A stretch of DNA of 64,000 nt from Bacillota bacterium (GCA_023393065.1 JAEWMX010000006.1:54378-118377), one strand, 5' to 3'. Shown: positions 6,859-26,748, counted from the stretch's first letter. Translations and numbers: made by a program. The notes: generated from the letters alone by a model not told the origin.

Positions 6859-6866
6859 GTCGCACC

Positions 6867-9198: not shown

Positions 9199-9227
9199 TT
9201 GCATTGAAAGTCCCCAACATTTATAAT
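9199..9227 (+). promoter_or_regulatory. sigma-A-like promoter TTGCAT-17-TATAAT for the mocA-xdh operon
   Basis: Hexamers and 17-nt spacer read from the sequence. Leaves a ~85-nt leader. Confidence 0.4.
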
Positions 9228-9897: not shown

Positions 9898-10684
9898 TCG
9901 CTATTTACGACCTGCGACCTTGGAAGAAGCATATCAACTGTTGCTTCAAGACCCCAAAAACATTTTGCTCGGCGGAGGCCTTTGGCTTAAAAAGTCCACC
10001 CCTTCAGCCAACGCTCTCGTCGATTTGAGTGCCCTCGGGCTCGACGCAATTAAAGATCTCGGTGATCGCCTTGAAATTGGGGCGATGGTCACTCTTCGCG
10101 ACTTTGAGTTAAGTCCTCTTATTAAAGAGATATGCGGCGGAGTCTTAACTGAAGCGACCAGCCAAATTATGGGCGTCGCTTTTCGCAACGGCGCGACGAT
10201 CGGTGGTTCGGTTGCCGGAAGATTCCCTTTCTCAGATATAATCACGCCGTTACTTGCCCTTGACGCGCAACTAGTTTTTTATCCCCACAAAGAAATGAGC
10301 CTCGCTGATTTTTTGGCTCTTAAAGGACGCCTTAGCGATATCCTCACTCATGTTGTTATCAAAAAAAGCAAAGGGCGCTCGTTTTTTAAGAAAGTCAAGA
10401 CGACAGCCCTTGATTTTGCCGTAATCAATGTTGCCATCGCATCTATTGATGGCAATTATCGCGTAGCGATAGGCAGCCGTCCTTCGGTTGCGTCTTTAGC
10501 GTTAAAGACCATGGATTCAGTCAACAATAAAAAGAAATTATCTAAGGAGGAAGTTCTTAAAGCCGCCGAGATAGCGTCTGAAGAACTATCCTATGCATCG
10601 ACTAACGCCGCGAGTGCCGAATATCGAAAAGCACTCGTCAAAGCCTATGTCAAGCGCGGTCTTGAGGAGGTCAGCAAAGAATGA
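9887..10684 (+). CDS. molybdenum hydroxylase FAD-binding subunit (XdhB/CoxM family), triad 1
   Basis: 265 aa. FAD-binding molybdopterin-dehydrogenase pattern (ILLGGGLWL, AFRNGATIGGSVAG). Confidence 0.85.
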   Translation: MEANRYLRPATLEEAYQLLLQDPKNILLGGGLWLKKSTPSANALVDLSALGLDAIKDLGDRLEIGAMVTLRDFELSPLIKEICGGVLTEATSQIMGVAFRNGATIGGSVAGRFPFSDIITPLLALDAQLVFYPHKEMSLADFLALKGRLSDILTHVVIKKSKGRSFFKKVKTTALDFAVINVAIASIDGNYRVAIGSRPSVASLALKTMDSVNNKKKLSKEEVLKAAEIASEELSYASTNAASAEYRKALVKAYVKRGLEEVSKE

Positions 10685-11133
10685 GAGTCAATTTTGTACT
10701 AAACGGACGAAACGTTATTTTTGATATCGCTCCCGGCGAATATCTGGCTGACACTTTGCGCGCCAATCACATTTTATCCGTCAAAAAAGCTTGTGATGAA
10801 TCCGCTTGCGGCGCCTGTACCGTCTTAGTTGACGGCCGCCCAATTCTATCTTGCTCTTATTTGTCCGCTCGCGTCGAAGGACGGAGCGTGACGACCGTCG
10901 AAACCATTCAAGACGAAGTCAATCAAATCAGCGACTTCTTTTCAGATGAAGGCGCTGATCAATGCGGCTTTTGCAACACCGGTCTCGCCTTGACGATTTA
11001 TGCTTTGCAAAAGGAAATGCCAAATGCCAGCGATGACGAGATACGACACTTTGTGGCCGGCAATCTCTGCCGCTGCTCGGGCTATCAGGCGCAATTCCTC
11101 GCCATCAAACACTATTTGGAGGCCCATAGATGA
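10681..11133 (+). CDS. molybdenum hydroxylase 2Fe-2S iron-sulfur subunit (XdhC/CoxS family), triad 1
   Basis: 150 aa. Two [2Fe-2S] cysteine clusters (CDESACGACTV; CGFCNTG...CRCSGY). Confidence 0.9.
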   Translation: MRVNFVLNGRNVIFDIAPGEYLADTLRANHILSVKKACDESACGACTVLVDGRPILSCSYLSARVEGRSVTTVETIQDEVNQISDFFSDEGADQCGFCNTGLALTIYALQKEMPNASDDEIRHFVAGNLCRCSGYQAQFLAIKHYLEAHR

Positions 11134-13433
11134 AAACGGTAAATCACAAGACTCCTTCCGTCGACGGCAAGGGCATCATGATGGGGCGGGCCGCCTTTAC
11201 CGATGACTTCGCCGAACCCAATTCCCTAATCGTCAAAATGCTACGGAGCCCCCACGCTTTTGCTCGCATCAAAAACATTGACACTTCCAAAGCTCGTGCC
11301 CTTCCCGGCGTCGAGATTGTCTTGACCCACCACGACGTCCCTCGCAAGTCGTTTACGAGGGCCGGACAAGGCTATCCCGAACCATCTCCACACGATAAGT
11401 TCATCTTAGATGAATATGTTCGCTATGTCGGCGATGAAGTCGCTTGCGTCGCGGCCATAAACGAAAGCGTTGCCGACCAAGCTTTGAAACTAATCGAAGT
11501 TGAATACGAGGTCCTTGAACCTGTGCTCGACTTTGAAAAAGCCTTTGAACACCAGAGCGTCATTCACCCCGAAGAAGGAATTTGCGAGATGTTTCCCATC
11601 GGTTTTGAACCGAAGAAAAATGTCGCTGCTTCTTATCACATGCATGTAGGAGATGTCGATGCTGTCATGGCTAAATGCGATGTGGTTGTCGAAGAAACTT
11701 ATTACACTCAAGCTCAAGCTCATGCGATGCTTGAACCGCATTCGACAAATGCCCGTTTGGATTATCATAATCGCCTCGTTATCTACTCTTCGACGCAAAC
11801 GCCTTATCACGTGCGTCGCATCTTGTCACAAACCCTTGATTTACCAATCAGCAAAATTCGCTTGATTAAGCCGCGTGTCGGCGGTGGATTCGGTGGCAAA
11901 CAGGCCCTGCATGGCGAGTTCTTTGTCTCTCTAGTGACTTTAAGAACCAAAAAACCATCCAAGATGGTGTATTCGCGACAAGAAGTATTTGAGTCCTCAT
12001 ACACTCGTCACCCGATGCGCATCACCATGCGTCTGGGAGCTATGAAAGACGGAACGATACGAGCGATCGACTGCTATAGTTTGTCCGATACCGGAGCTTA
12101 TGGCGAACACGCTTTAACCGTCTTTATGATTACCGGATCAAAAGTCTTGCCTTTATATAATAAAGTCGATGCTGTCCGCTTCGGCGGCCGCGTCGTCTAC
12201 ACCAACCACGTATCCGCTGGCGCTTATCGCGGTTACGGCGCGATTCAAGGTAATTTCGCCCTTGAATCAGTCATTGATGTCCTGGCGAAGAAGCTCAACA
12301 TGGATCCTTTGGAATTGAGACGCAAAAACATGATGGAAGAAGGCGAGACGAGCCCAATTTTTGAAATCATGGGCGAAGGCACCGAAGGCACGGCCATGAA
12401 TATGGATACGTGCAAACTCCGCTATTGTCTCGATCGCGGCGCCGAACTGATAGGGTGGAAAGACAAATATCCATTTGTTCGAGTCGGCCCCCACAAAGTC
12501 CGCTCGGTCGGCATGGCCATTGCTATGCAAGGTAGCGGCATTCCCTACATCGATATGGCAGCCGCCACTATCAAACTAAATGATGATGGCTTTTATAACC
12601 TGACCGTCGGGGCGACCGATATCGGTCAAGGCAGCGATACGATACTCACGCAAATTGCCGCTGAAACCCTGATGACAACCATGGATAAAGTCGTGATTTA
12701 CTCATCTGATACCGACTTGACGCCGTTTGATGTCGGTGCCTACGCATCTAGTACGACATATGTTTCTGGCAATGCCGTGCTTAAGGCCGCGAAGAGCATG
12801 AAGACCATGCTGATTGAAGAGGCGGCCCATTATCTGAAAGTCTCCGTAGATGAAGTGACATTCGATGGCGAAAAGTTCGTCGCCAAAGATAAGATCATCA
12901 CTTTATCGGATATGGCTAATAAACTCTACTACAACGAAAATCAACACCAACTGACAGCGACCGAAAGTTATGTCGGTCACAAGTCGCCGCCGCCTTTTAT
13001 GGCCGGTTTTGTCGAAATCGAAATGGATACTGAAACTTATGAGTACAAAATACTTCATTATGTCAGCGTCGTCGATTGCGGCACGACAATTAATCCGATG
13101 CTCGCCCGCGGTCAAGTCGAAGGCGGCATCGTCCAAGGACTGGGCATGGCTTGCTTTGAAGAAGTCAAATACAGCAATCGCGGAAAGCTTAACAGCAACA
13201 GCTTCTTGTATTACAAGATTCCGACGATGCTCGACATCGATAAGTTAACTACCGAGTTTGCGGAAAGCTATGAGGAAAGCGGTCCTTATGGGGCTAAGTC
13301 AGTCGGTGAAATCGGAATTGACACGCCGCCGGCAGCCATTGCCAACGCGGTCGCCAATGCCGTCAACATTCGCATTAATAAATTACCAATCACTCCTGAA
13401 AAGATTTTTCAGGGGGCAAATCAAGAAAAATAA
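11130..13433 (+). CDS. molybdenum hydroxylase molybdopterin-binding large subunit (xanthine dehydrogenase family), triad 1
   Basis: 767 aa. Aldehyde oxidase/xanthine dehydrogenase a/b-hammerhead and MoCo-binding domain pattern (GGGFGGK, GQGSDT, EIG). Confidence 0.9.
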   Translation: MKTVNHKTPSVDGKGIMMGRAAFTDDFAEPNSLIVKMLRSPHAFARIKNIDTSKARALPGVEIVLTHHDVPRKSFTRAGQGYPEPSPHDKFILDEYVRYVGDEVACVAAINESVADQALKLIEVEYEVLEPVLDFEKAFEHQSVIHPEEGICEMFPIGFEPKKNVAASYHMHVGDVDAVMAKCDVVVEETYYTQAQAHAMLEPHSTNARLDYHNRLVIYSSTQTPYHVRRILSQTLDLPISKIRLIKPRVGGGFGGKQALHGEFFVSLVTLRTKKPSKMVYSRQEVFESSYTRHPMRITMRLGAMKDGTIRAIDCYSLSDTGAYGEHALTVFMITGSKVLPLYNKVDAVRFGGRVVYTNHVSAGAYRGYGAIQGNFALESVIDVLAKKLNMDPLELRRKNMMEEGETSPIFEIMGEGTEGTAMNMDTCKLRYCLDRGAELIGWKDKYPFVRVGPHKVRSVGMAIAMQGSGIPYIDMAAATIKLNDDGFYNLTVGATDIGQGSDTILTQIAAETLMTTMDKVVIYSSDTDLTPFDVGAYASSTTYVSGNAVLKAAKSMKTMLIEEAAHYLKVSVDEVTFDGEKFVAKDKIITLSDMANKLYYNENQHQLTATESYVGHKSPPPFMAGFVEIEMDTETYEYKILHYVSVVDCGTTINPMLARGQVEGGIVQGLGMACFEEVKYSNRGKLNSNSFLYYKIPTMLDIDKLTTEFAESYEESGPYGAKSVGEIGIDTPPAAIANAVANAVNIRINKLPITPEKIFQGANQEK

Positions 13434-13445
13434 AGGAGTCTTGTT

Positions 13446-14138
13446 ATGAATAACAAAAAAAGTGTCTCAAACTCACTACTAGCCATTGTCTTTTTTGGAG
13501 CCGCTTGGGGCTTGCTAGAAGCCACGATGGGCTACCTCCTTCACTGGTTACCCGGCATGTGGTCGGGTCTGGTGATGTTTCCAATTGGGTCAGCTCTGAT
13601 GTATTGGGCCTATCAAAACACCGGACGTAGGAGCGCCATTCTCTATGTCGGTTTGCTAGCTGCTAGCATCAAGGCCATTAACTTCGCATTCCCAATTCAT
13701 TGGGAAGGATGGATGAGAGTGTATACGCCGATGATTTCGATCGTCTTAGAATCATTGACGGTTTTTGCCGTCAGTTACATCTTTGAGAAGAAAGCCTCGC
13801 CTATCAGACAGATTTTCATTCACCTCGGGGCGATGGTCCTAGCCATTGTTTCTTGGCGCCTTCTCTTCTTAGGCAATCAAGCCATTCAGTCGCTGATTAG
13901 CGGGAATCTCGCCAACCAACTTAGTTCTTTTGGAGCGGCGGCCAGCTTCGTTTTTGTTAATGGTGGCTATGAGTTGCTCGTCTTCGCCATCATTTACGGT
14001 ATTTATCGCCTCGTCCAATTCCTAATCTTGACGTTTAATAAGACAAATGTAAAAGCTCCGAATTGGCTGATGCCCGTTCTTTCGCCTCTAACTTTCGTCT
14101 TCGCTGTCTTGGCAGTTATTTTGCCAAAGCTTTTATAA
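13446..14138 (+). CDS. uncharacterised integral membrane protein (about six predicted TM helices, possibly ECF S-component-like)
   Basis: 230 aa, hydrophobic throughout. No recognisable catalytic motif. Embedded in the Mo-hydroxylase cluster. Confidence 0.55.
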   Translation: MNNKKSVSNSLLAIVFFGAAWGLLEATMGYLLHWLPGMWSGLVMFPIGSALMYWAYQNTGRRSAILYVGLLAASIKAINFAFPIHWEGWMRVYTPMISIVLESLTVFAVSYIFEKKASPIRQIFIHLGAMVLAIVSWRLLFLGNQAIQSLISGNLANQLSSFGAAASFVFVNGGYELLVFAIIYGIYRLVQFLILTFNKTNVKAPNWLMPVLSPLTFVFAVLAVILPKLL

Positions 14139-14192
14139 GGAAGATAGAAATCGCCACCATGTCAACAATCATCGTTCAAAGAAAGGCTCTCC

Positions 14193-14678
14193 GTGGTTAA
14201 GATAATCAGCGGGAAAGTCGATTCTGGAAAAACGACGGAGATGATTCGGCGCTACGAAGCCACGCGTTCAGGCGATGGCTTCGTAGCCCTTAAAAAAATG
14301 AAGGGGAACGATATTTACGGATATTGCATTCGACGCCTTGGCAACGATCGTTCGCTCATGTGGATGATTCATCAAAAACACTATCAGGACGACTTTAAGA
14401 ACCATAGTAAGTTCGGTCCTTATTACCTCAATCTCGACGTTTTGCATCTGATGGAATCCGATGTCGATGAGTTTATCGCAAAAAACATCGCCCCCATCTT
14501 CCTCGACGAAATTGGAATCCTCGAACTTAATGGCGGAGGCTATCACAACATTTTGAAGAAACTATTAGCAAGCGGTCTCAATCTCGTCATCGCCGTCCGC
14601 GAAGACCTCGTCAAACCCATCGCGAATTACTTCGCTATCAAAGACTATGAACTGATACAAGTTCAAAGAGAGGAGTAG
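14193..14678 (+). CDS. small P-loop NTPase (MobB-like; candidate molybdenum hydroxylase maturation accessory protein)
   Basis: GTG start. Walker A at residues 6-14 (ISGKVDSGKTT). 161 aa. Context similar to yqeC/mobB-type accessory genes. Family assignment is tentative. Confidence 0.5.
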   Translation: MVKIISGKVDSGKTTEMIRRYEATRSGDGFVALKKMKGNDIYGYCIRRLGNDRSLMWMIHQKHYQDDFKNHSKFGPYYLNLDVLHLMESDVDEFIAKNIAPIFLDEIGILELNGGGYHNILKKLLASGLNLVIAVREDLVKPIANYFAIKDYELIQVQREE

Positions 14679-14682
14679 AACC

Positions 14683-15990
14683 ATGTACGATTATGCAATC
14701 ATGAATGGCAAGCTCTACATCAACGGTCATTGGGAAAAGCACAACCTCTATATCGCAAAGAGCAAAATCGCCTTGATCAGCGATGACTTTTTGGATGCAT
14801 CGGAAGTGGTGGACGCCGACGGACTAGAAGTCTTGCCGGGCATCGTCGACCCGCATGTTCATTTCGAACTCGACTTAGGCAAATACAAATCCGTCGATGA
14901 TTTTTATCATGGCACGGTAGCAGCCGCCTACGGCGGAGTAACCTCCATCGTCGACTTTCTCGATCCGGTGAGCAATGCCGAAGAACTCCAAGTCGCCTTT
15001 GATAAGCGCATGGCGTTAGCTAAAAAATCCGTCGTCGATTTTCGCCTCCACGCCTGTTTAAAAAACCCGACGGGCGATCTCGAAGAATTCGTCAAAAAAA
15101 TGAAGAGCCTCGACATGCACACGCTCAAGATTTTTACGACTTACTCCGACTCTGGCCGCCGGACTTATGAAAAAGATATCATCAAGCTGCTCGAGCTGTC
15201 TGACAAGTATAAATTTTTGCTCCTCGTCCATGCCGAAAACGATGATTTGATCGTTCTAAAAAAAGATTTTACGTACCAGGATTTGCCGATTAGCCGTTCC
15301 TCGGAAGCGGAAAGAACCGAAGCCCTGCACCTAGCGAAACTCGTCCGGCATCACGGCGGGAAACTATATATGGTTCATCTAAGTGACGGCCACACGCTAG
15401 AAGCCCTTATTGAAAACTATAGCGATATTTTGAATAAGCATTTCTTTGTCGAAAGCTGCCCGCAGTATTTTACTTTTACCAACGACGACTTGCAGAGAGA
15501 AGATGGCTACTTGTATTCGTTTGCCCCACCTCTTCGGGATTTCGTCTCGCGTAAAATGCTTTTCGTCAATCAGAAACACATCGATACGATCGGTACCGAC
15601 CACTGCGCTTTCAACGTTGCCGACAAAAAAGGCAAGATGCTTTTTGAAATGCCATTAGGCATTGGAGGCATCGAGCACTCGTTTACGATTATGCGTCATC
15701 ATCTCGGTGATGCCGTCATTAATAAGATGACCGCCAATGTAGCCCGCATCCAAGGTCTCGAAGGCAAAGGCGAAATCAAAGTCGGAAACGATGCCGATCT
15801 GCTCATTTTCAAACCCGAACCACGCAGCCTGATTCTTGACAAGCACGGCCGCGCCGATTACTCCTTGTACATCGGTCAGCCCGCGCACGGTCAAGTTATC
15901 TCAACGATGATTCGCGGTCATTTTGTGATTCAAAACCGCGTCTATCAAGGCGGACAAGGACAGTGGATCAAAGGGCGGGATATCGCATGA
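14683..15990 (+). CDS. cyclic amidohydrolase of the hydantoinase/dihydropyrimidinase family (HyuA-like)
   Basis: 435 aa. N-terminal metal-binding DPHVHF motif and the family's GxxDxH pattern near the C-terminus. RBS AGAGGAG upstream. Confidence 0.8.
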   Translation: MYDYAIMNGKLYINGHWEKHNLYIAKSKIALISDDFLDASEVVDADGLEVLPGIVDPHVHFELDLGKYKSVDDFYHGTVAAAYGGVTSIVDFLDPVSNAEELQVAFDKRMALAKKSVVDFRLHACLKNPTGDLEEFVKKMKSLDMHTLKIFTTYSDSGRRTYEKDIIKLLELSDKYKFLLLVHAENDDLIVLKKDFTYQDLPISRSSEAERTEALHLAKLVRHHGGKLYMVHLSDGHTLEALIENYSDILNKHFFVESCPQYFTFTNDDLQREDGYLYSFAPPLRDFVSRKMLFVNQKHIDTIGTDHCAFNVADKKGKMLFEMPLGIGGIEHSFTIMRHHLGDAVINKMTANVARIQGLEGKGEIKVGNDADLLIFKPEPRSLILDKHGRADYSLYIGQPAHGQVISTMIRGHFVIQNRVYQGGQGQWIKGRDIA

Positions 15991-17291
15991 AAAAAGCCAT
16001 AATTAACATTAAAATTTATGATTTTGCGAAGTTTTCGAATGATAGCTTTGTTATCTTTGACCAGGCAATTTTGCATGTTGGCGCAATGTCTGACTTCGTC
16101 GATGAAGGTTTTGAAATCATCGATGGCCGGGGCGCATTGCTCATGCCCGGACTCGTATGTGCTCACACCCACATCTACTCGAAATTTGCTCGTGGCCTAG
16201 CCCTTCCTTTTAATCCTAAAAATTTCCAAGAAATTCTTGACCAGATGTGGTGGAAACTCGACCGCCACATCGATAATGAAACATCATACTACAGCGGCAT
16301 TGTCGCCGCCGCCGATTTTCTTCGCGACGGCGTGACGACAATTATCGATCACCACGCCAGCGGCCAAGAAATTAGCGGTTCGCTCGCCTCGCTTAAAAAA
16401 GCCGTTTGCGACGAAGCTTCGATGCGGGCTCTGTTCGCCTTCGAAGTCAGCGATCGTTTCAATATCGAAGAAGCGATTGAAGAAAATATTTCGTTTATCA
16501 GAAATTTCAAGACGCCACATACCGCCGGTCTCTTCGGTCTTCACGCCTCGATGAGCCTTTCGGAGGATACTCTCAATCAAGTTGGCGCTCGCCTTAAGGG
16601 GGCCCCTATTCACATTCATGTCGCTGAAAGCGAGATGGATGAAGAAGATGCTATTAACAAATATGGCGAACGAGTCGTAGAACGTCTTGATCGCCATGGT
16701 TTGATCAACGAAGATAGCCTTTTGATTCACTGCGTCCACGTCAATGACAAAGAGCTTGATATCATCAAAAGGCGTCAGGCCGCAATCGTCGTCAATGTCA
16801 CCTCTAATATGAACAACGCGGTCGGACTTCCAAACATTAATAAATTCCGCGAGAAGGAAATTCCCGTCATGATTGGAAACGACGGCCTTTCCAGCGGTAT
16901 CGCTAATGAGTATATAAATGTCTTGTATAGTGCACATCTGCTTAATAAGAAGCCGACAGCCTTTGATCTCGGCAATCTCTTAGAGATGATTAATCAAGGT
17001 TACGAATATGTCTCTCGCCATCTCGGCGTCAAACTCGGTCGCATCGAAGCTGGTTACGAAGCTGATTTGCTTCTCATGCCGTATGTTCCTCCGACCGCCC
17101 TTGACAAAAGCAACGCCCTCGGCCATCTTTTCTACGGCTTGATGCACGCCTTTAAACCGAGTGATGTTTTTGTCGCCGGCAATCATTTGCTTAAAAATTA
17201 CGAACTTGCAAATAAGAAATTAGTGTTGGAGTACGAAAAAAGCCAAGGAGTTGCCGATCGACTCTGGAATAGAATCAAAGGAGAAAAATGA
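15987..17291 (+). CDS. ssnA: SsnA-type amidohydrolase (chlorohydrolase/aminohydrolase family)
   Basis: ATG at 15987 overlaps the upstream stop (ATGA). ~434 aa. HTHIYS metal-binding motif. Conserved membership in the ygeW/xdh neighbourhood. Confidence 0.75.
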   Translation: MKKAIINIKIYDFAKFSNDSFVIFDQAILHVGAMSDFVDEGFEIIDGRGALLMPGLVCAHTHIYSKFARGLALPFNPKNFQEILDQMWWKLDRHIDNETSYYSGIVAAADFLRDGVTTIIDHHASGQEISGSLASLKKAVCDEASMRALFAFEVSDRFNIEEAIEENISFIRNFKTPHTAGLFGLHASMSLSEDTLNQVGARLKGAPIHIHVAESEMDEEDAINKYGERVVERLDRHGLINEDSLLIHCVHVNDKELDIIKRRQAAIVVNVTSNMNNAVGLPNINKFREKEIPVMIGNDGLSSGIANEYINVLYSAHLLNKKPTAFDLGNLLEMINQGYEYVSRHLGVKLGRIEAGYEADLLLMPYVPPTALDKSNALGHLFYGLMHAFKPSDVFVAGNHLLKNYELANKKLVLEYEKSQGVADRLWNRIKGEK

Positions 17292-18379
17292 TGGATTTAT
17301 CGACCAAGTTTGATGGATTAGTTCTCGCCAATCCGCTCATGCCCGCTGCCGGTCCTCTCGTCGGCGATACCGAACGCCTCGTTTTCATGAAAGACGCCGG
17401 CTGCGGCGCCATTGTCACTAAGACAATTTCCACCAAAGACGCCCATATTCCTCGCCCCTGCATTTACGGCGACCGCGAATATATCATGAACAGCGAATTG
17501 TGGAGCGAGTACAACAAAGAAAAGTGGATTGAAGAGTTCTTACCGGAATTCGTCGCTCAAAATGATGGCCGCCCCCTTATCGTAAGCGTCGGCTACACGA
17601 AGGAAGACATGGAAGTTCTCATCCCTCTGCTTGACCGTTTCGCCGATGCTTTTGAAGTATCGACTCACTATGTGGGCACAGATCATTCTGTCATCGCCGA
17701 AACCGTTCGTGCGATTCGCAAGCACACAAACAAGCCCCTCTATATGAAAATCAGCCCTCATATTCCTGATCCTTCAGGATTTGCCAAGGCCATCAAGGCC
17801 GCCGGAGCCAACGGCGTCGTCGCCGTCAACTCTTTGGGTCCGACGATGAAGATAGATATTAAAAAGCGTCGAATCATCTACGGAAACGAAAAAGGTTTCG
17901 TGTGGACGAGCGGACCAGTCATTAAAAATCTCGCATTCGCGACCGTCTATACGATCAAACGAGCCGAGCCATCCTTGACGGTCATCGGCGTCGGCGGCAT
18001 CGCCACCGCGGATGATGTCATCGAATTTTTGCTAGCCGGCGCGAGCGGCGTGCAAATGCTTTCGGCCGCCCTTTTAAAAGGCAAACAACTATACGCCAAG
18101 ATTATCGAAGACCTGCCCAAGGCTCTTGAAAGAAATGGCTTCTCCTCAGTTCAAGAAGTTATTGACACGCAACTAACTAACAAAGTTAGATATGAAGGCA
18201 ATACTCCATATCTCATTCCTGAAAAATGCATTCGCTGCATGTTATGCGTGAAGATTTGTCCATATTTTGCCATCGAGATGAAAGATGTCATCACCTTTGA
18301 TTCGACGAAGTGCTTTCAGTGCGGTCTTTGCCCTGTGAAGTGCCCGACTGGCGCGATTGTCATGGAAGAAAAGGAGTAA
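17288..18379 (+). CDS. dihydroorotate/dihydropyrimidine dehydrogenase-like flavoenzyme with C-terminal 2x[4Fe-4S] ferredoxin domain (PreA-like)
   Basis: 363 aa. DHOD-like TIM-barrel N-terminus. C-terminal CIRCMLCVKICP and CFQCGLCPVKCP motifs. Confidence 0.75.
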   Translation: MMDLSTKFDGLVLANPLMPAAGPLVGDTERLVFMKDAGCGAIVTKTISTKDAHIPRPCIYGDREYIMNSELWSEYNKEKWIEEFLPEFVAQNDGRPLIVSVGYTKEDMEVLIPLLDRFADAFEVSTHYVGTDHSVIAETVRAIRKHTNKPLYMKISPHIPDPSGFAKAIKAAGANGVVAVNSLGPTMKIDIKKRRIIYGNEKGFVWTSGPVIKNLAFATVYTIKRAEPSLTVIGVGGIATADDVIEFLLAGASGVQMLSAALLKGKQLYAKIIEDLPKALERNGFSSVQEVIDTQLTNKVRYEGNTPYLIPEKCIRCMLCVKICPYFAIEMKDVITFDSTKCFQCGLCPVKCPTGAIVMEEKE

Positions 18380-18382
18380 CGA

Positions 18383-20476
18383 ATGTTCGATCCGAAGAAA
18401 TCAACACCGAAAGTCGACCACGAAGAAAAGTGCTCCGGCCAAGCCCAATATGTCTCGGACATCGTTTTAGACGACATGCTCTATGCTAAGACGGTGCGCT
18501 CCACGATTGCTCGAGGATATATTCGCGCGATTGGCATTCCCACCCTTCCTCGCGGTTATCACATCGTCGACCACCGCGATGTCGTCAAAGAAAATTATGT
18601 CAAAATGATTTTTAATGACTGGCCCGTTTTTACCGTCGACCGCGTCAACTACATCGGCGAACCGATCATGCTCGTGGTCGGTCCCGACAAGCGCGTCATC
18701 GACGAAATCATCTCGGAAATTAAAATTGATTACGAAGAGGAGACGCCGGTTTTTGATTATTCAAAAAGCGTCGTTCACAAATCTTTCACCAAAGGTGATT
18801 TGAAAGCGACGAGCAAAGATGCCGTTCGCGTCATCAAAGAAACTTTTAATACTGGATATCAAGAGCAAGCGTACATTGAACCGCAAGGCATGCTCGCCTA
18901 TTTAGAAGAGGGCGGCAAAGTTACTTTAGTCGGTTCGATGCAGTGTCCCTATTATATAAAAAACGCCGTCATCAACACTCTGGGATATCCCGAGGATAAG
19001 GTGCGCGTCATTCAACCCGCCGTCGGAGGCGCTTTTGGCGGCAAAGAAGAATTTCCTTCGACGACCGCCTGCCAACTCGCGACGGCTGTCGTCAAAATCA
19101 AGAAGCCGATTAAGATGATTTTCGAACGCGAAGAGGATATGCTCGTCACGACGAAGCGCCATCCTTCGACGACGACCCTCGAAGTTCTCATCGATAAGAA
19201 CAATAAAGTGCTGGGGATTAAAGCCCATGTCAGCTTAGACGCGGGGGCCTACATCGGTTTAAGCGGTGTCGTCTTGTCGCGTTCGATGCTCGCTGTCACC
19301 AATGCCTATACCATCAATAATCTCGATGTCAGCGGTGATGTCTATATTACGAACACCGTTCCGACCGGAGCCTTTCGCGGCTTTGGTTCGCCGCAGATGA
19401 TCTTTGCCATCGAAATGTTTATGAATCACCTCGCCAAAGATTTAGGCCTTGATCCATTCGAGTTTCGTCTTAATCACTTAGTAAAACAAGGTGATCTAAC
19501 CTCGACATCCGGAATCTTCCGCGACCCGATCATCATGAAAGATATGATTGCTAAAGCCGCTGAGATTTCCGACTATCACAACAAGACTAAAGAATATGCC
19601 AAACCAGGCGTTTACAAAGGAATCGGCATGAGTTGGTTCTTACACGGGTGCGGTTTTACCGGCGATGGTGAGAGCACGCACATTAAGGCCAAAGTCCGAC
19701 TCGTCAAAGACGAGCAAGACTATGTTCGTTTGCATATCGCCGCCGTCGATATGGGGCAAGGCGCTAAAACCTCGCTTAAGCGCATCGTCGCCATGACCTT
19801 AGGTATCGACAACGAAAAAGTAATCTTTGATTATCCCGACACCGATTTGGCACCTGATTCGGGGCCGTCCGTCGCATCGCGCACGGTGATGATTGTCGGC
19901 GGTCTATTAGCCCGAGCCGCTCAAAATCTCAAAGACAACTGGAAGAAAGGCGAACGCCAGGAAATCATCGAGCACTACAAACAACCGGATTACATCGAAT
20001 GGGATGAAAGCAAACTGCGCGGAGACGCTTATCCGGCTTATTCGTGGGGTGTCAATGTCGTCGAAGTTGAAGTCTCTCCGATTTCTTACGAAGTCGAGCT
20101 CAAAGGTATTTGGAGCGTCTACGATGTCGGCAAAGCCATCGATGAAAGAATGCTCGTCGGACAAGCCGACGGAGGCATTACCCAAGGCGTAGCCTATGGC
20201 TATCTAGAAGTTATGCGCCACGAAAACGGCAAACTGAAACAGAAGAATTTAACTGATTACATCATACCGACATCGATGGATATGCCGCCGATGGAAACCG
20301 TGATAATGGATAATCCGTTTGCCTATGGTCCGTATGGCGCGAAAGGCGCTGGCGAACTGACCTTAGTCGGAGGGGCGCCGGCTGTCGCTTTAGCGATTGA
20401 AAATGCCATTAAACGCCGCATCAATCGCATTCCCGCCACCCCTGAACACATCATGGAGTTATTAAACAATGAATAA
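18383..20476 (+). CDS. molybdenum hydroxylase molybdopterin-binding large subunit, triad 2
   Basis: 697 aa. Paralogous to 11130..13433 (GGAFGGK, MGQGAKT, GELT motifs). Confidence 0.9.
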   Translation: MFDPKKSTPKVDHEEKCSGQAQYVSDIVLDDMLYAKTVRSTIARGYIRAIGIPTLPRGYHIVDHRDVVKENYVKMIFNDWPVFTVDRVNYIGEPIMLVVGPDKRVIDEIISEIKIDYEEETPVFDYSKSVVHKSFTKGDLKATSKDAVRVIKETFNTGYQEQAYIEPQGMLAYLEEGGKVTLVGSMQCPYYIKNAVINTLGYPEDKVRVIQPAVGGAFGGKEEFPSTTACQLATAVVKIKKPIKMIFEREEDMLVTTKRHPSTTTLEVLIDKNNKVLGIKAHVSLDAGAYIGLSGVVLSRSMLAVTNAYTINNLDVSGDVYITNTVPTGAFRGFGSPQMIFAIEMFMNHLAKDLGLDPFEFRLNHLVKQGDLTSTSGIFRDPIIMKDMIAKAAEISDYHNKTKEYAKPGVYKGIGMSWFLHGCGFTGDGESTHIKAKVRLVKDEQDYVRLHIAAVDMGQGAKTSLKRIVAMTLGIDNEKVIFDYPDTDLAPDSGPSVASRTVMIVGGLLARAAQNLKDNWKKGERQEIIEHYKQPDYIEWDESKLRGDAYPAYSWGVNVVEVEVSPISYEVELKGIWSVYDVGKAIDERMLVGQADGGITQGVAYGYLEVMRHENGKLKQKNLTDYIIPTSMDMPPMETVIMDNPFAYGPYGAKGAGELTLVGGAPAVALAIENAIKRRINRIPATPEHIMELLNNE

Positions 20477-20942
20477 GATTAGATTTAATTTAAATGGACA
20501 AGATGTCGCCGTCGAACTCAATCCGAGCTTGCGCTTGCTTGATGTTTTACGCGATCACTTCCATCTGACTGGCACCAAAGAAGGGTGCGGTGAAGGCGAA
20601 TGCGGAGCGTGTTCGGTTTTAATTAACGGTCGCGTCGTCAACAGTTGTTGCTTTCCACTGGCTAATGCCAATGGCAAAAAAATAATGACAATCGAAGGGC
20701 TTGCCGCCACCGAGCGCTACCAAGTGCTTAAAGATGCCTTTCACATCGAAGGTGGTTCGCAATGTGGCATTTGCACACCGGGGATGATCATGGCGGCCGA
20801 AAGCCTTCTTTCAATGAATCCTCATCCGACCGATGAAGAAATTCGAATCGGCCTCTCCGGCAATTTGTGCCGCTGCACCGGTTACAACATGATTATCAAG
20901 GCGGTTAAAGTCGCCGCCAAGTTAGGAGAAGGTTTATGGTAA
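20469..20942 (+). CDS. molybdenum hydroxylase 2Fe-2S subunit, triad 2
   Basis: 157 aa. CGEGECGACSV and CGICTPG...CRCTGY motifs. Confidence 0.9.
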   Translation: MNKIRFNLNGQDVAVELNPSLRLLDVLRDHFHLTGTKEGCGEGECGACSVLINGRVVNSCCFPLANANGKKIMTIEGLAATERYQVLKDAFHIEGGSQCGICTPGMIMAAESLLSMNPHPTDEEIRIGLSGNLCRCTGYNMIIKAVKVAAKLGEGLW

Positions 20943-21784
20943 GACACATTATTCCTAACAATCTCAAAGAAGCCCTTATTTATTTAACCGAGGGTCCTTT
21001 TCACATCATGGCCGGCGGTACGGATTTGATGATTCAAAGGCGCAGCTCGGCTGGCACACCACCGAAATTTGCCAAAGATGTGCTCTACATCGCAAATCTC
21101 GAAGAGCTTAATTACATCAAAAAAGACGAAGAGCACAATTGCTTGAGAATTGGCGCGGCGACTAAACTTGAAGATATCTGCCATCACGATGATGTTCCGG
21201 CCTTGCTTAAAGATGTCATCCGCGAGATTGGAAGCCCCGGCATTCGCCATAGTGGAACCTTGGGAGGAAACATCGCAAATGCATCTCCTGCGGGAGACAG
21301 TCTCGTCGCTTTATATCTCTTTGACGCCGAAGTCGTTTTGTTAAGCGTCGATGGCGAGCGCACCATGCTTCTTAAAAACTTTATCACCGGTGTTCGCCGC
21401 ATCGACCTTCACGCTAACGAGCTGATCAAAGAAATCATCATTCCAAATGTTTTAATGACTAATTATAAATGGTATAAAGTCGGAGGGCGACGCGCAGATT
21501 CGATCAGCAAAGTCTCTTTCGCCGGATTATATCTAGTCAATTTTGGATTAGTTGCCGATATCCGTTTTGCTTTCGGCTCCGTTTCAGCGACCGTGGCGCG
21601 CAGCCTCGAACTGGAAAATTCATTGAAAAACCGGCCTATCGAGCAAGTTATCGCTGAATTGCCGCGTATTTTAGAAGAGACAAATAAGTTGATTTCGCCG
21701 ATTGATGATCAGCGCTCAAACAAAATTTATCGTCGCAAAGTAGCAAACAATATCATGGAACGCTTTATTAAAAGCATGAAGTAA
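20936..21784 (+). CDS. molybdenum hydroxylase FAD-binding subunit, triad 2
   Basis: 282 aa. FAD_binding_5-like motifs (IMAGGTDLM, HSGTLGGNIANASPAGD). Confidence 0.85.
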   Translation: MVRHIIPNNLKEALIYLTEGPFHIMAGGTDLMIQRRSSAGTPPKFAKDVLYIANLEELNYIKKDEEHNCLRIGAATKLEDICHHDDVPALLKDVIREIGSPGIRHSGTLGGNIANASPAGDSLVALYLFDAEVVLLSVDGERTMLLKNFITGVRRIDLHANELIKEIIIPNVLMTNYKWYKVGGRRADSISKVSFAGLYLVNFGLVADIRFAFGSVSATVARSLELENSLKNRPIEQVIAELPRILEETNKLISPIDDQRSNKIYRRKVANNIMERFIKSMK

Positions 21785-21797
21785 AGAAGGTGTGATA

Positions 21798-23042
21798 ATG
21801 CATAAGTTCAAAGGTTATCGCTGCACATTATGCGGCAAGACTTATAGCCCTGATGAGGCGCTTTATACCTGTCCTTCTTGTGGCGAAAAAGGCATTTTGG
21901 ATGTCGAATACGATTATGAGAAATTAAAGAATACGATAACGCTTGATTACTTTAAAAATAATCGCGATTATTCGATGTGGCGCTACGCCCCGCTCATGAG
22001 CATGCCGGACGATCACATCAAGGAGATGCTCAGAATTGGCTGGACGCCACTATATAAATCAAAGCGCCTCGCCGAATATCTAGGTATCAAGGAGCTCTAC
22101 ATTAAAGATGAAGGTCTGAATCCCAGCGGTTCAACTAAAGACCGAGCCAGCGGCGTCGCCGTCTTAAAAGCCATCGAAGCGGGGGCGCAAACCATTTCCT
22201 GCTCATCGACAGGCAACGCTGCATCAAGCTGTGCATGCCAAGCCGCGCACATGGGCTTAAAGAGCGTTATTTTCGTGCCCAAAAGAGCGCCGATTGGCAA
22301 GTTGACGCAACTATCCATTTACGGAGCGACAGTCATCTGCGTCGACGGCGATTACAAAGACACGTATAACTTATCGCGTAAAGCGATTGAAACTTATCAT
22401 TGGTATAACCGCAATGCGGCGATTAACCCGCACATGGTCGAAGGCAAAAAAACCGTCGCTTTAGAAATTGCCGAGCAACTCGATTTCGCACCGACTGACT
22501 GGGTGGCGATTTCCGTGGGAGACGGCTGTAGCGTCGGTGGTGTTTACAAGGGTGTCTTCGATTTGTATCAATTAGGCCTCATCAAACGCATTCCCAAAAT
22601 TCTCGGAGTGCAGAGTTCAGGATGTGCGCCGTTCGTGACGGCGTTTGAAAATAACGAACCGCTTAAGGAAGCCGATGAAAACACTTTGGCCGACTCTATC
22701 GCCGTCGGCATTCCCCGCAACCCGAATAAAGGCTTAAATGCCATCAAAAAGAGCGGCGGGCACTTTATAAGTGTCAGCGATAAGCATATACTAGAGAGTA
22801 TGGCGCTTTTAGGGCGCCTGGAAGGCATCTTCGGAGAACCGGCTGGCGTGACTGCGCTAGCGGGCGTCGAAGAGGCTCTGCATAGAGGTGTAATCAGACC
22901 CGATGAGTCGGTGACATTCATTGTTACCGGCAACGGATTAAAAGACCCGACCAATGCGCAAAAAGCAATCAGTCCACCCATCCTTCTCAAGCCCGATATC
23001 GAGGCCCTAAACAAGTATTTAAAAGAAAAAGGAGTCAAATAA
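21798..23042 (+). CDS. fold-type II PLP-dependent enzyme, threonine-synthase-like, with N-terminal Cys4 zinc ribbon
   Basis: CTLCGK...CPSCGEKG zinc ribbon. PLP-lysine motif NPSGSTKDRAS plus SSTGNAASS, closely patterned on ThrC (NPTGSFKDRG...STGNTSAS). ATG 21798 chosen over GTG 21792, which lies inside the RBS AAGGTG. Confidence 0.75.
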   Translation: MHKFKGYRCTLCGKTYSPDEALYTCPSCGEKGILDVEYDYEKLKNTITLDYFKNNRDYSMWRYAPLMSMPDDHIKEMLRIGWTPLYKSKRLAEYLGIKELYIKDEGLNPSGSTKDRASGVAVLKAIEAGAQTISCSSTGNAASSCACQAAHMGLKSVIFVPKRAPIGKLTQLSIYGATVICVDGDYKDTYNLSRKAIETYHWYNRNAAINPHMVEGKKTVALEIAEQLDFAPTDWVAISVGDGCSVGGVYKGVFDLYQLGLIKRIPKILGVQSSGCAPFVTAFENNEPLKEADENTLADSIAVGIPRNPNKGLNAIKKSGGHFISVSDKHILESMALLGRLEGIFGEPAGVTALAGVEEALHRGVIRPDESVTFIVTGNGLKDPTNAQKAISPPILLKPDIEALNKYLKEKGVK

Positions 23043-23044
23043 AC

Positions 23045-24412
23045 ATGACAAAAATTCCCTTTGGACCGACCTATGATGAGATGCTTCATCCGGATCACAT
23101 CGACCCGGAAATTCGCGCGAAAGCCCTAAAGGCTAAATACGCCGATGAGCTCGATCCCATCAATCTTTTCAACATCAATTGGAAAGATGATAATGGCCAG
23201 GTCCGCAAAATTGTTCTCCCCAAAGCTCTGACCGGCGTCGAAGCCAACATCGTCGTGCTCTTAGGAAAGCAATTCCCCTCTGGTTCCCACAAAGTCGGAC
23301 CAGCTTATTCAACCCTGATTGAAGGATGCATCGATGGAGATATCATTCCAGGCAAACACACGATTTTAGGACCATCGACCGGTAACTTTGGCATCGGCGT
23401 TTCCTACATCGCCAACTTGATGAAATATCAAGCCATCGTCATCATGCCCGACAACATGTCGAAAGAGCGCTATGATCGCATTCAGCGCTATGGAGCCAAA
23501 CTCGATTTGACACCAGGTTCCGAATCCGATGTCATCTTGACTCTTGAAAGAACGTACGAACTTAAGAAAAATCCTAATTATCGCACTCTCGCCCAATTTG
23601 AATTGATGCCGAACTATCGCTTTCATCGCCACGTGACTGGCAACAGTTGTGTCGAAGCCGTTAAAGGCGTCGGCAATGGCCGTATCGCCTGCTTCGCCTC
23701 GGCGCCAGGAAGCGCGGGCACATTAGCAGCCGGCGACGGCATCAAAGCCGTCTTCCCCGAATGTAAAATTGCCGCCCTCGAACCTTATGAGTGCTCAACT
23801 CTTACCAATGGTGGACGCGGCCAGCATCGCATCGAAGGCATCGGCGATAAGATGTGCACCCTGATTCACAATATCATTACGACCGATTTCATCGCTTTAA
23901 TCAAAGATGACGATTCGGTTCGCGGTCTTAAAATTATCCATGACGCCCCACAGGTTTTAGTCCGCCACGGCGTCGACAAAAAGGTCGCCGAAGGCATGCG
24001 TGAATTATTTGGCGTATCCGGCATTTGCAACATCTTAGGCGCCATTAAAATGGCGAAGCACTTGAGACTAGGTCCTGGAGATAACGTTGTGACGATTGCC
24101 ACCGACGGCTACGATCGCTATGAGAGCGTCCTTGAACTGCTCGAAAAGCGCGAGCTCGAAACGGCCGACTATGTCTTGGAACGCTGGTATAAGGATATCT
24201 TCCTCGGCGCCGAAGACGCCTACATCGAAGATGCTCGCTTGCCGAAAGTCAAAGAGCGCCTCTTCAAGCAGAAGGAAAACGACTGGCTAAAATTTGGCTA
24301 TACGCAGCAATATCTCGATGCGATGAGACATCCCGAATTCTGGGAAGCCGAATATCACAAAGTCTTCGAATATGACGAGAAGATCAAAAAAATGAGAGGA
24401 AAAGCACTATGA
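23045..24412 (+). CDS. fold-type II PLP-dependent enzyme (CysK/TrpB-like core with ~100-aa C-terminal extension)
   Basis: 455 aa. [10 protein letters not shown] (PLP lysine) and [13 protein letters not shown] glycine loop. The region after ~330 aa has no CysK counterpart. Confidence 0.7.
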
Positions 24413-25626
24413 ACAAAAAAATCCCTTTTAGCGAAATCCTAAAAAAAGCCGAATCTTACAAAAAAGAGATGACGGCCTTTCTCCGCGACATGATTGCCCT
24501 ACCGAGCGAATCGTGCCAGGAAAAAGAAGTTATTCACCGCATCAAACAAGAGATGGAAAAAGTTGGTTTCGACCGTGTCGTCATCGATAAGATGGGTAAT
24601 GTCTTAGGCTACATCGGCCACGGCAAACACCTCATTGGCATGGACGCTCATATCGACACCGTCGGCATCGGTGACATTCGCAACTGGACTTTTGATCCAT
24701 ACAAGGGCTACGAAGACGATGTCCACATCGGCGGTCGTGGCGCCAGCGACCAAGAAGGCGGCATGGCCGCGATGGTCTACGCTGGGAAAATCATTAAGGA
24801 TTTAGGTCTTGAAGACGACTACACACTGGTTGTTACGGGCACCGTCCAAGAAGAAGACTGCGACGGACTCCCTTGGCAATATATCATTGAGGAAGACAAA
24901 GTTCGCCCCGAATTCGTCGTGATTACCGAACCGACCTCGTGCCGCATCTATCGCGGCCATCGCGGAAGGATGGAAATCAAAGTGACGACGCGCGGCATCT
25001 CTTGCCATGGCAGCGCCCCGGAAAGAGGCGACAATGCCATCTATAAGATGGGACCGATTATCGGCGAGATCAAACAACTCAATGAGCGGTTGAAATTCGA
25101 TCCGTTCCTCGGCAAAGGCACGATGACGATCAGCGAGATCTTTCACACCTCGCCATCGCGCTGCGCGGTTGCCGACAGCTGCTGGATCTCCATCGACCGC
25201 CGTTTGACGATGGGCGAGACGCATTTAGGCGCCCTTGACGAAATCAGAGCTTTACCCTCGGTTAAAGCTGCTGGTGCCACCGTCGAAATGTACATGTATG
25301 AACGTCCGTCATGGACGGGCTTAGTCTATCCTACCGAGTCCTATTTCCCGACGTGGGTTATTCCCGCCGACCATGTCATTTGTACGTCCTCGGTCGAAGC
25401 TTATAAAGGCTTATTTAGCAAAGACCCGGTCGTTGACAAATGGACCTTCTCGACGAATGGCGTAACCATCATGGGACGCTATGGCATTCCCTGCATCGGC
25501 TTTGGGCCCGGTGACGAAAAAGAGGCACATGCGCCAAACGAAAAGACGAGAAAAGAAGATCTCGTCATCGCCGCTGCGCTCTATGCCGCCATTCCTTTGA
25601 TGTATGTTAGTCAACTCAAAAAATAA
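24409..25626 (+). CDS. ygeY: M20 family metallopeptidase/amidohydrolase, YgeY-type
   Basis: 405 aa. Typical M20 metal-binding His/Asp/Glu pattern ([15 protein letters not shown]). Conserved context next to ygeW. Confidence 0.8.
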
Positions 25627-25637
25627 GGAGAAAATGA

Positions 25638-26648
25638 ATGAGTAAATTGTTCTACAAAAAAACGATGAAACCCCTCTTCAAAGGTCGTCACTTCATCACC
25701 CTTGAAGAATGGACCAAAGATGAAATCGACAAGCTGCTTGAAGTATCCTACGATTTAAAAAACAAATTCTATAAGAACATTCCGACCCCATATCTCGAGA
25801 ACAAAACCGGCTTCTTGATGTTCTTTGAACAATCGACGAGAACGAGAAACTCGATGGAATCAGGTCTCGCCCAGCTCGGCGGACACGCGACGTTCCTCGA
25901 CACGTCAATGATGCAGATTTCACACGGCGAAAGCGCGAAAGACACCGCCGTCATCCTCTCTTCTTTCGGACACGGCATCGCCTGCCGCTACTGCAATTAC
26001 GGCGTCGGCAATAAATACATTCGCGAGATGGCTGCGCATTCGACTGTGCCGGTCATGAATTTGCAATGCGACCTGTATCACCCGATGCAAGCCTTGGCCG
26101 ACTTGATGACCATTCAGGAAGTCTTTACGACGACCAAACATCTCAAAGTATCAATTATATGGGCCTACGCCGAAAGCCATAAAAAACCGATCAGCGTCCC
26201 TCTTTCACAAATTCTGCTCTTCCCTCGCTATGCGATGGATGTCACCCTCGCTTATCCGGAAGGCTATGACCTCCCAGACTGGGCGATTGAAAAAGCTAAG
26301 AAAAACGCTGAAGAAAATGGTGGCTCTTTCCGCATTACGCATGACATGAAAGAAGCCTTTAAAGACGCCGATGTCGTCATTCCGAAGAACTGGGGCAGCT
26401 GGGTTAAGAACCAGTCGACCGTCGTCGTCGATGATTACATCAAGACGCTAAAAGACTGGAAGTGCACCGAAGAGATGATTAAACTCGCCAGCCCGAATGT
26501 CAAATACATGCACGCTCTTCCGGCTGACCGCGGTAACGAAGTTGAAGACTCCGTCATCGACGGCCCGCACTCGATCGTCTATCAGGAAGCCGAAAATCGC
26601 TTGCACACCGCCAAAGCTGTTATGGCGATGACGATGGGCGACAAGTAA
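25638..26648 (+). CDS. ygeW: YgeW-type (knotted) carbamoyltransferase
   Basis: 336 aa. Carbamoyl-phosphate-binding STRTR motif (FEQSTRTRNSMESG) and HALP-like HxLP. RBS AAGGAG 8 nt upstream of ATG 25638. Confidence 0.85.
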   Translation: MSKLFYKKTMKPLFKGRHFITLEEWTKDEIDKLLEVSYDLKNKFYKNIPTPYLENKTGFLMFFEQSTRTRNSMESGLAQLGGHATFLDTSMMQISHGESAKDTAVILSSFGHGIACRYCNYGVGNKYIREMAAHSTVPVMNLQCDLYHPMQALADLMTIQEVFTTTKHLKVSIIWAYAESHKKPISVPLSQILLFPRYAMDVTLAYPEGYDLPDWAIEKAKKNAEENGGSFRITHDMKEAFKDADVVIPKNWGSWVKNQSTVVVDDYIKTLKDWKCTEEMIKLASPNVKYMHALPADRGNEVEDSVIDGPHSIVYQEAENRLHTAKAVMAMTMGDK

Positions 26649-26748
26649 AACCCCAAATCTCTGACGAGGATTGCCAAGAAATTGGCAGTCCTTTTTTATT
26701 TCTTTTGTTACAAATACTTGAGTATTACAATAAATACAGGGGAATTGC

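Follow-up and report, generated by a model that had tools for sequence, protein, structure and literature searches.

A pair of pyridoxal phosphate enzymes in the place of YgeX in putative reductive uric-acid operons of uncultured Bacilli and their relatives

Which enzymes complete the reductive degradation of uric acid in bacteria whose uric-acid operon lacks a gene for YgeX? In the described pathway, YgeY and YgeW take both ureido groups off 2,3-diureidopropionate, and YgeX turns 2,3-diaminopropionate into pyruvate (Li et al. 2025; Liu et al. 2025). The corresponding gene order in Escherichia coli is ygeW-ygeX-ygeY. The question is raised by a 64-kb stretch of DNA from a Bacillota bacterium (GCA_023393065.1 JAEWMX010000006.1:54378-118377), which is part of a 381-kb metagenome scaffold and is referred to here, over its whole length, as the window. 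A preliminary description of the window placed two fold-type II pyridoxal 5'-phosphate (PLP) enzymes, neither of them YgeX, between the molybdenum hydroxylase genes and ygeY. Both open reading frames are real, both products have PALP domains, and no YgeX-like gene was found within the 64 kb. We designated the two proteins P1 and P2.

21798..23042, plus strand: P1, 414 amino acids, a PLP enzyme derived from threonine synthase (ThrC) with an N-terminal four-cysteine (Cys4) zinc ribbon
23045..24412, plus strand: P2, 455 amino acids, a PLP enzyme with the cysteine synthase (CysK) fold and with N- and C-terminal extensions

A uric-acid operon with the conserved P1/P2 pair and without YgeX recurs in hundreds of uncultured bacteria from gut, rumen, and sediment. 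A scan for P2, in which each species was represented by one genome, yielded 584 relatives, and the best 80, all at least 75% identical, were examined over about 20 kb per locus. Taxonomic labels among these best 80 of 584 included Izemoplasmatales, Acholeplasmataceae, Erysipelotrichaceae (rumen metagenome-assembled genomes), and cultured Mycoplasmatota strains. Gene content, conservation, and co-occurrence were read directly from these loci. P1 and P2 were both present in 76 of the 80 loci, and the remaining four contigs (L004, L046, L055, and L069) were short or ended beside P2. Every locus with enough flanking sequence had the order HyuA-SsnA-(UacX or YgfK)-Mo-FeS-FAD-P1-P2-YgeY-carbamoyltransferase, and in most loci P1 and P2 were separated by 0 to 4 nucleotides or overlapped by no more than 20. 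Five loci were rearranged such that P1 and P2 stood apart, with both retained; the order in four of these was HyuA-YgeW (68% identical to the E. coli protein)-P2-carbamate kinase-P1-YgeY. YgeY was kept in 71 of the 80 loci and the carbamoyltransferase in 69, which is nearly all of those with downstream flank. Median identities were 77% for the carbamoyltransferase, 76% for P2, 75% for YgeY, 70% for UacX, 69% for P1, and 51 to 54% for HyuA and SsnA.

A search of the loci with E. coli YgeX matched only P1 itself, at 21 to 28% identity. No YgeX-like gene was found in any of 160 related loci, comprising the 80 closest and 80 from a sister lineage considered below. The substitution of the pair for YgeX is therefore conserved across loci, and the preliminary suggestion that the three-carbon (C3) end of the pathway is in the hands of different proteins stands. 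Profile models of diaminopropionate ammonia-lyase (DAPAL), the family to which YgeX belongs (NF006058, TIGR03528, and TIGR01747), gave 61.9 bits for P1 (cut-off 276) and 31.4 bits (cut-off 276) and 24.6 bits (cut-off 532) for P2.

The pair lies within an operon of about 17 kb (9319..26648), in which all genes are on the plus strand and overlap or are closely spaced. The features of the operon and its borders, other than P1 and P2, are as follows.

8116..9036, minus strand: YqeA-like carbamate kinase (AA_kinase; 53% identity to E. coli YqeA), divergent to the operon
9198..9227: promoter-like site upstream of the MobA-like gene
9319..9897, plus strand: MobA/MocA-like nucleotidyltransferase, the first gene of the operon
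9887..13433, plus strand: molybdenum hydroxylase set 1, with a flavin adenine dinucleotide (FAD) subunit, a 2Fe-2S subunit, and a molybdenum subunit (767 amino acids; 37% identity to E. coli XdhD), the closest counterpart of XdhD/YgfM
13446..14678, plus strand: 230-amino-acid protein with a hydrophobic N terminus and no Pfam match, and 161-amino-acid NTPase_1 protein
14683..15990, plus strand: HyuA-like hydantoinase/dihydropyrimidinase (Amidohydro_1; 214 bits with the D-hydantoinase model, below its cut-off; 29% identity to E. coli HyuA)
15987..17291, plus strand: SsnA-like aminohydrolase (NF005540, 365 bits versus a cut-off of 444; 31% identity to E. coli SsnA)
17288..18379, plus strand: UacX-type (PydA-like) flavin reductase with 4Fe-4S domains (DHO_dh and Fer4)
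18383..21784, plus strand: molybdenum hydroxylase set 2, with a molybdenum subunit (697 amino acids; only 22% identity to E. coli XdhD), a 2Fe-2S subunit, and a FAD subunit (20936..21784, directly before P1)
24409..25626, plus strand: YgeY, M20-family hydrolase of ureido groups (TIGR03526, 692 bits versus a cut-off of 321; 73% identity to E. coli YgeY)
25638..26648, plus strand: carbamoyltransferase of 336 amino acids resembling ornithine carbamoyltransferase (OTC; OTCace_N and OTCace), the functional counterpart of YgeW
26666..26693, plus strand: terminator-like hairpin with a 12-bp stem followed by a T run, at the operon end

P1 starts at an ATG (21798) preceded by a GAAGGTG ribosome-binding site, P2 starts 2 nucleotides past the P1 stop, and the end of P2 overlaps the start of ygeY by 4 nucleotides. 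The closest relatives of the window are metagenome-assembled genomes labeled Bacilli, Bacillota, or Erysipelotrichia. Homologues of all seven pathway components (SsnA, HyuA, the dearomatizing reductase, an XdhD-type molybdenum enzyme, YgeY, a carbamoyltransferase, and carbamate kinase) are located together, and as judged from these homologies the operon corresponds to the reductive uric-acid (2,8-dioxopurine) pathway that was described in 2025. YgeY exceeds its equivalog cut-off and SsnA, HyuA, and the carbamoyltransferase do not, which marks the latter three as divergent members of their families. The reductase has the same architecture as Clostridioides difficile UacX (Li et al. 2025). The presence of two complete three-subunit molybdenum enzyme sets suggests that one might serve urate/2,8-dioxopurine and the other might be a hydroxylase for another purine. 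The 230-amino-acid protein and the NTPase_1 protein, which are kept in the closest loci (L002, L003, and L008), are possibly accessories for cofactor maturation or transport.

The carbamoyltransferase narrowly missed the cut-off of the ornithine carbamoyltransferase model (265.6 versus 280.85 bits) and scored 198 bits with the YgeW model (cut-off 500), with 39% identity to E. coli YgeW. It thus differs from the knotted, 396-amino-acid YgeW. A true YgeW, 68% identical to that of E. coli, stands in place of the OTC-like enzyme in five related loci. Albizziin is the C3 homologue of citrulline, and therefore the OTC-like enzyme may act on a free alpha-amino acid by phosphorolysis of its 3-ureido group. 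This possibility is relevant to the contested order of ureido cleavage in the pathway.

P1 is clearly related to ThrC, but it is not an ordinary ThrC. Its PALP domain spans residues 79 to 378 (E = 1.6e-75), and its PLP-lysine motif, LNPSGSTKDRAS, contains Lys114, which is invariant in 76 of 76 orthologues. The nearest solved structures are short bacterial ThrCs (2zsj at 228 bits, 1uim, 2d1f, and 6cgq) with 36 to 41% identity; identity to the Aquifex enzyme, 2zsj, is 41% across 322 positions. P1 passes TIGR00260 (thrC) with 203.6 bits versus a cut-off of 167.1, and this pass at a permissive model probably explains the database name 'threonine synthase'. It falls below the cut-offs of NF006050 (277 versus 303 bits), NF004170, NF004996, NF006205, and NF005035.

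The active-site composition of P1 departs from that of ThrC at specific positions. The residues T88, S155, R160, and N188 (Thermus numbering) are invariant across the four solved ThrCs, and we take them to form the site that holds the phosphate of O-phosphohomoserine. These roles were reportedly deduced from a complex of Thermus ThrC with a substrate analogue that Omi and colleagues are said to have described in 2003. The equivalents in P1 are A141, A208, L or M213, and D242 in 76 of 76 orthologues. ThrC F60, which precedes the lysine, is replaced by S, L, or T in P1 orthologues. In a simple neighbor-joining distance tree, a split with 99% bootstrap support separated the cluster-linked P1-type proteins from the solved ThrCs and two other ThrC-like proteins. 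Rooting the tree with YgeX gave an unreliable root, and the tree was therefore read as unrooted splits.

A zinc ribbon, with cysteines spaced CxxC-x12-CxxC at residues 9 to 28, is kept in 74 of the 76 P1 orthologues. The preliminary description considered this ribbon foreign to bacterial ThrCs. It is indeed missing from all four solved bacterial ThrCs, but such a ribbon is nothing exceptional within the ThrC superfamily: family models named 'threonine synthase' and the cysteate synthase model align from P1 residue 6 to 8, and therefore the ribbon is not diagnostic. P1 scored 92.4 bits with the cysteate synthase model, versus a cut-off of 324.9.

P2 has the complete catalytic apparatus of CysK within a larger protein. 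All 79 orthologues, without exception, retain K83, S111-T-G-N114, Q184, G222-S-A-G-T226, and S325. Its PALP domain (residues 76 to 354, E = 2e-23) is a weaker match than that of P1, and identity to the best-matching Protein Data Bank (PDB) chains is 26 to 30%. An AlphaFold2 model built from a 41-sequence alignment (predicted local distance difference test score of 94.2) superposes on CysK and beta-cyanoalanine synthase over about 310 to 325 columns (TMt 0.82 to 0.88; TMq about 0.6), in agreement with the CysK-like core noted beforehand. The CysK-like alignment stops near residue 361, leaving a C-terminal extension of 94 residues. The extension of about 100 residues previously noted is thus borne out, and to it must be added an N-terminal extension of about 55 residues that had gone unmentioned. 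A fold search with the predicted model found no PDB chain that matches either extension. Relatives that are as little as 26% identical still have this whole architecture, with tryptophans conserved in each of the two extensions.

No curated NCBIfam model claims P2. Scores were 130.1 bits with cysK (cut-off 350.95), 130.2 with cysKM (344.15), 84.4 with cysM (394.2), and 56.1 with the SbnA model (349.95), and databases name the protein 'cysteine synthase' or 'PLP-dependent enzyme'. Neither protein is thus an ordinary ThrC or CysK: P1 falls on the non-ThrC side of the tree, and P2 misses the cut-offs. The profile scores also argue against identifying P2 as SbnA or P1 as cysteate synthase.

The preliminary description had further proposed chemistry on O-phospho or O-acetyl amino acids, with O-phosphoserine supplied by the serA and serC genes upstream. 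The evidence does not support these ideas. P1 lacks the presumed phosphate-site residues in all 76 orthologues. The serA and serC genes belong to a separate gene group beyond the divergent carbamate kinase and the promoter-like site, and neither gene accompanies the pair in any rearranged or sister locus.

The sister lineage consists of 80 metagenome loci (L088 to L167) whose proteins are about 44% identical to P2 and 41% identical to P1. Often, the sister operon encodes one or two copies of a carbamoyltransferase, carbamate kinase, a P1-like protein, a family-2 glycosyltransferase, a P2-like protein, a 226-amino-acid protein, SsnA, and proteins related to cofactor F420 (an F420-dependent oxidoreductase, CofE, CofD, CofC, and a luciferase-like enzyme). 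Loci L153, L159, and L162 exemplify this order, and YgeY is present in some sister loci. The F420-type clusters match the 'luciferase-family' uricolytic variant in Chloroflexota (Li et al. 2025). No part in the pathway is obvious for the glycosyltransferase or the 226-amino-acid protein. The sister P1-like proteins have Ala at the position of T88 (22 of 22), no Arg at R160, and Asp at N188 (18 of 22), and the zinc ribbon is present. Some sister loci consist only of ABC-transporter ATPases, P1, P2, YgeY, and YgeW, with no molybdenum enzyme gene recognized; from their gene content these look like a stand-alone module for the lower pathway.

The gene for a Peptidase_M55 D-aminopeptidase (316 bits) adjoins the P2-like gene in L117, L120, L121, L146, and L156, and in L156 it sits between the P1-like and P2-like genes. 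These neighbors hint that P2-type enzymes may act on D-configured amino acids. Distant P2-like genes also adjoin genes of the ThrC superfamily or a carbamoyltransferase gene. The ThrC-like neighbors in L083 and L084 were considered as members of the P1 clade and rejected, as they group on the ThrC side of the tree; they indicate only a looser association of ThrC-like and P2-like proteins. Apparent P1-P2 fusions were likewise considered as 'Rosetta stone' evidence. One (P0284) is a duplicated plant-type CysK that we take to be an assembly artifact. In two others (P0354 and P0313) P2-like sequence runs into ThrC-like sequence, and P0354 resembles a frameshifted read-through. These two cases support adjacency but not fusion.

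Genes with the names that P1 and P2 carry in databases have been reported in an expression study. In the cultured Izemoplasma strain zrk13, the genes of cluster G4Z02_01105-01195 were jointly up-regulated in the presence of thiosulfate and again in situ (PMC8397711). It includes xanthine-dehydrogenase-related genes, guanine and adenine deaminases, an NTPase, a nucleotidyltransferase, and an aminohydrolase, as well as an 'ornithine carbamoyltransferase', a 'cysteine synthase', and a 'threonine synthase' that the authors filed under amino-acid metabolism (PMC8397711). The NTPase in this co-induced cluster recalls the NTPase_1 gene in the window. Thiosulfate at 100 mM promoted growth of zrk13 and induced the whole purine cluster, for which the authors gave no explanation (PMC8397711). 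Thiosulfate may here support the supply of cofactors or provide the CysK-like enzyme with a sulfur nucleophile. In Hujiaoplasma zrk29, a similar cluster is induced by DNA/RNA.

Threonine synthase-like or cysteine synthase-like genes are not mentioned by Li et al. 2025 or Liu et al. 2025, and the neighborhood analysis of Li et al. 2025 counts any PF00291 protein as 'YgeX'. A literature search found no paper that joins ssnA, ygeY, and 'threonine synthase'. What is new, then, is the P1/P2 variant of a known uric-acid pathway and the recognition of two uncharacterized and misannotated PLP enzyme subfamilies.

From these comparisons, P1 and P2 probably constitute a two-protein PLP module that replaces YgeX and converts a diaminopropionate-type product to pyruvate and ammonia. 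Non-orthologous displacement of YgeX is the best-supported reading of the sequences, and we regard it as reasonably likely. The molybdenum hydroxylase would reduce urate, the UacX-type reductase would dearomatize the ring, and ring opening would fall to SsnA and HyuA. Both ureido groups would then be lost through the action of YgeY and of the carbamoyltransferase together with carbamate kinase. YgeY is 73% identical to its E. coli counterpart, and therefore the step from the mono-ureido compound to diaminopropionate is to be expected and diaminopropionate is the likely substrate of the pair. This substrate and the products pyruvate and ammonia are inferred, as would be any complex between P1 and P2. 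The C3 product would be 2,3-diaminopropionate, possibly the D-isomer; associations with D-hydantoinase, D-aminoacylase, and D-aminopeptidase hint at D-configured intermediates.

Within the proposed module, P1 is favored as the beta-eliminating enzyme because the change from Arg/Asn/Ser/Thr to Leu-Met/Asp/Ala/Ala at the presumed phosphate site, by which cationic and polar residues give way to neutral and acidic ones, would suit a cationic beta-ammonium leaving group. P2 would be an obligate partner with complete CysK-type machinery for aminoacrylate. It might act on the other enantiomer or on a mono-ureido precursor, or it might pass the aminoacrylate on by beta-replacement, in a relay that depends on a nucleophile and for which the thiosulfate induction offers a lead. 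A more far-reaching version, which we put forward only tentatively, is that P1 and P2 represent two novel families of enzymes, together forming an obligate two-component PLP system with chemistry unlike that of DAPAL, ancient in origin and mislabeled in at least 584 species-representative genomes. Such a system could be, for example, a racemase/lyase couple for D-diaminopropionate or a hand-off of aminoacrylate with a sulfur nucleophile. Its antiquity would follow from the sharing of the pair between Bacilli and F420-type clusters.

Several observations weigh against replacement of YgeX by the pair. The functions of P1 and P2 are predictions from sequence. A single YgeX suffices elsewhere, which leaves the need for two proteins unexplained. 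The phosphate-binding role of T88, S155, R160, and N188 is presumed. The catalytic pair of DAPAL is Lys77 and Asp120, the latter in a D-G-N loop (PMC4000059), and Asp120 corresponds to Thr in both proteins (T138 in P1, and T112 in the S-T-G-N loop of P2). CysK-type enzymes usually perform beta-replacement rather than net elimination. The absence of YgeX covers about 20 kb per locus, and a ygeX gene could lie elsewhere in the genomes. The zrk13 genes are equated with P1 and P2 by gene names and gene content, not by sequence. Furthermore, 44 of the 80 sister loci have no purine-cluster marker, and of the 43 whose upstream sequence extends to 3 kb or more, 25 have no P1-like gene beside the P2-like gene. 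P2-like proteins are therefore not confined to the uric-acid pathway.

Other roles for the pair were weighed against the same evidence. We give almost no credence to the idea that P1 and P2 are simply the threonine synthase and cysteine synthase of housekeeping metabolism, located in the operon by chance. The names of both proteins in databases, the pass of P1 at the TIGR00260 cut-off, and its identity to Aquifex ThrC would fit, but the replacement of the four ThrC residues in every P1 orthologue, the 99% split from the solved ThrCs, and the low CysK scores and two extra conserved extensions of P2 do not. Synteny with purine-catabolic genes is also strict across orders and through rearrangements, and the 64-kb window has no hom, thrB, or cysE. 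A role in maturation of a selenium- or sulfur-dependent molybdenum hydroxylase is very improbable. P1 and P2 would in that case make or cleave a seleno- or thio-amino acid as donor of the labile ligand, with no carbon flux. CysK-type enzymes can make selenocysteine, and the names of the YgeY and SsnA models place the clusters in a 'selenium metabolism-linked' type. However, P1 and P2 in rearranged loci go with YgeW, carbamate kinase, and YgeY rather than with the molybdenum hydroxylase subunits, the sister loci beside ABC ATPases pair P1 and P2 with YgeY and YgeW where no molybdenum enzyme gene is recognized, and diaminopropionate would be left with no enzyme to consume it.

The intact beta-replacement site of P2 in 79 of 79 orthologues would suit a relay in which P2 makes aminoacrylate from diaminopropionate or albizziin and adds sulfide, thiosulfate, or water, and P1 processes the product. 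CysM-type enzymes accept thiosulfate, and thiosulfate induced the zrk13 cluster and boosted growth. Such a relay is nevertheless unlikely: it has no direct support, the operon contains no sulfur-handling genes, thiosulfate may work through supply of Fe-S or molybdenum cofactors, and a catabolic, ATP-yielding operon would be expected to finish at pyruvate. Similarly doubtful are its conceivable products, cysteine, S-sulfocysteine, or serine, with the C3 unit partly assimilated or the nucleophile acting catalytically. Alternatively, one or both enzymes might act on albizziin and eliminate urea or carbamate to yield pyruvate with no free diaminopropionate. The CysK family handles ureido nucleophiles, with O-ureidoserine synthase among the PDB matches of P2, and the order of ureido cleavage is still disputed in the literature. 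We consider this route quite unlikely, as YgeY and the carbamoyltransferase, which together already strip both ureido groups, are retained in most loci, YgeY closely resembles the E. coli enzyme, and there is no urease in the 64-kb window.

The reductive urate pathway, which was not solved until 2025, is under consideration for probiotics against gout and hyperuricemia and for microbiome profiling. Surveys that rely on ygeX, or on any PF00291 protein, miss or mislabel many purine degraders, among them Izemoplasmatales, Acholeplasmatales, rumen and gut Bacilli, and bacteria with F420-type clusters. The pair also inflates the apparent capacity for threonine and cysteine biosynthesis in metabolic reconstructions of these reduced genomes. 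The use of two PLP enzymes for one would offer a clean case of non-orthologous displacement and bears on the stereochemistry of the C3 intermediates.

Three other features of the window deserve mention.

1093..1262, minus strand: lysine riboswitch (RF00168, 85.8 bits), which lies upstream of the gene at 210..1025 (minus strand) for a solute-binding protein of family 3
3112..8048, plus strand: glutamate dehydrogenase (GDH), DUF1015, SerC-like aminotransferase, and SerA-like dehydrogenase, forming their own gene group
53105..56580: open reading frame of 869 amino acids, with an Orn/Lys/Arg decarboxylase (residues 8 to 322) fused to an agmatine deiminase (residues 514 to 863), followed by a CN-hydrolase

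The riboswitch is the sole Rfam match in the window, and no riboswitch was found near the operon. The adjacency of DUF1015, SerC, and SerA may inform the function of DUF1015. The CN-hydrolase is presumably similar to N-carbamoylputrescine amidase, and from its domains the 53105..56580 group looks like a route from arginine to putrescine with the first two enzymes fused.

The closest known system is YgeX/DpaL, the DAPAL of E. coli and Clostridium sporogenes, which is likewise a fold-type II PLP enzyme and has the same position in the cluster, by ygeY and ygeW. P1 and P2 presumably share its role in converting a C3 diamino acid to pyruvate and ammonia. However, the pair comprises two proteins, in contrast to the single YgeX. 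YgeX is 25% identical to P1 and has only a 70-residue local match to P2, and P1 widely misses the DAPAL models. The catalytic lysine of DAPAL is present in the pair, whereas its aspartate is replaced by threonine.

ThrC and P1 share the whole catalytic domain, the S-x-K-D-R lysine motif, the STGN loop, and a C-terminal TGNGLKD. P1 differs in its zinc ribbon, the four replaced residues, the change at F60, its separate clade, and its context, since all 76 orthologues lie in purine-catabolic clusters rather than with thr genes. Cysteate synthase, which uses O-phosphoserine, is derived from ThrC as P1 is and has an N-terminal extension, with its model aligning from the zinc-ribbon region of P1; P1, however, lacks the presumed phosphate-binding set. 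P2 shares a common fold and all catalytic motifs with CysK/CysM, beta-cyanoalanine synthase, the O-ureidoserine synthase DcsD, and SbnA. The roles of these motifs correspond to those in CysK: the PLP lysine, the S-T-G-N loop for the carboxylate, the Gln, the G-S-A-G-T loop for the phosphate, and the Ser at N1. In contrast to the single-domain CysK and CysM, which have about 310 (300 to 320) amino acids, P2 has 455, its lysine motif is HKVG where CysK has KDR, and it contains a conserved N-Y-R-F-H segment.

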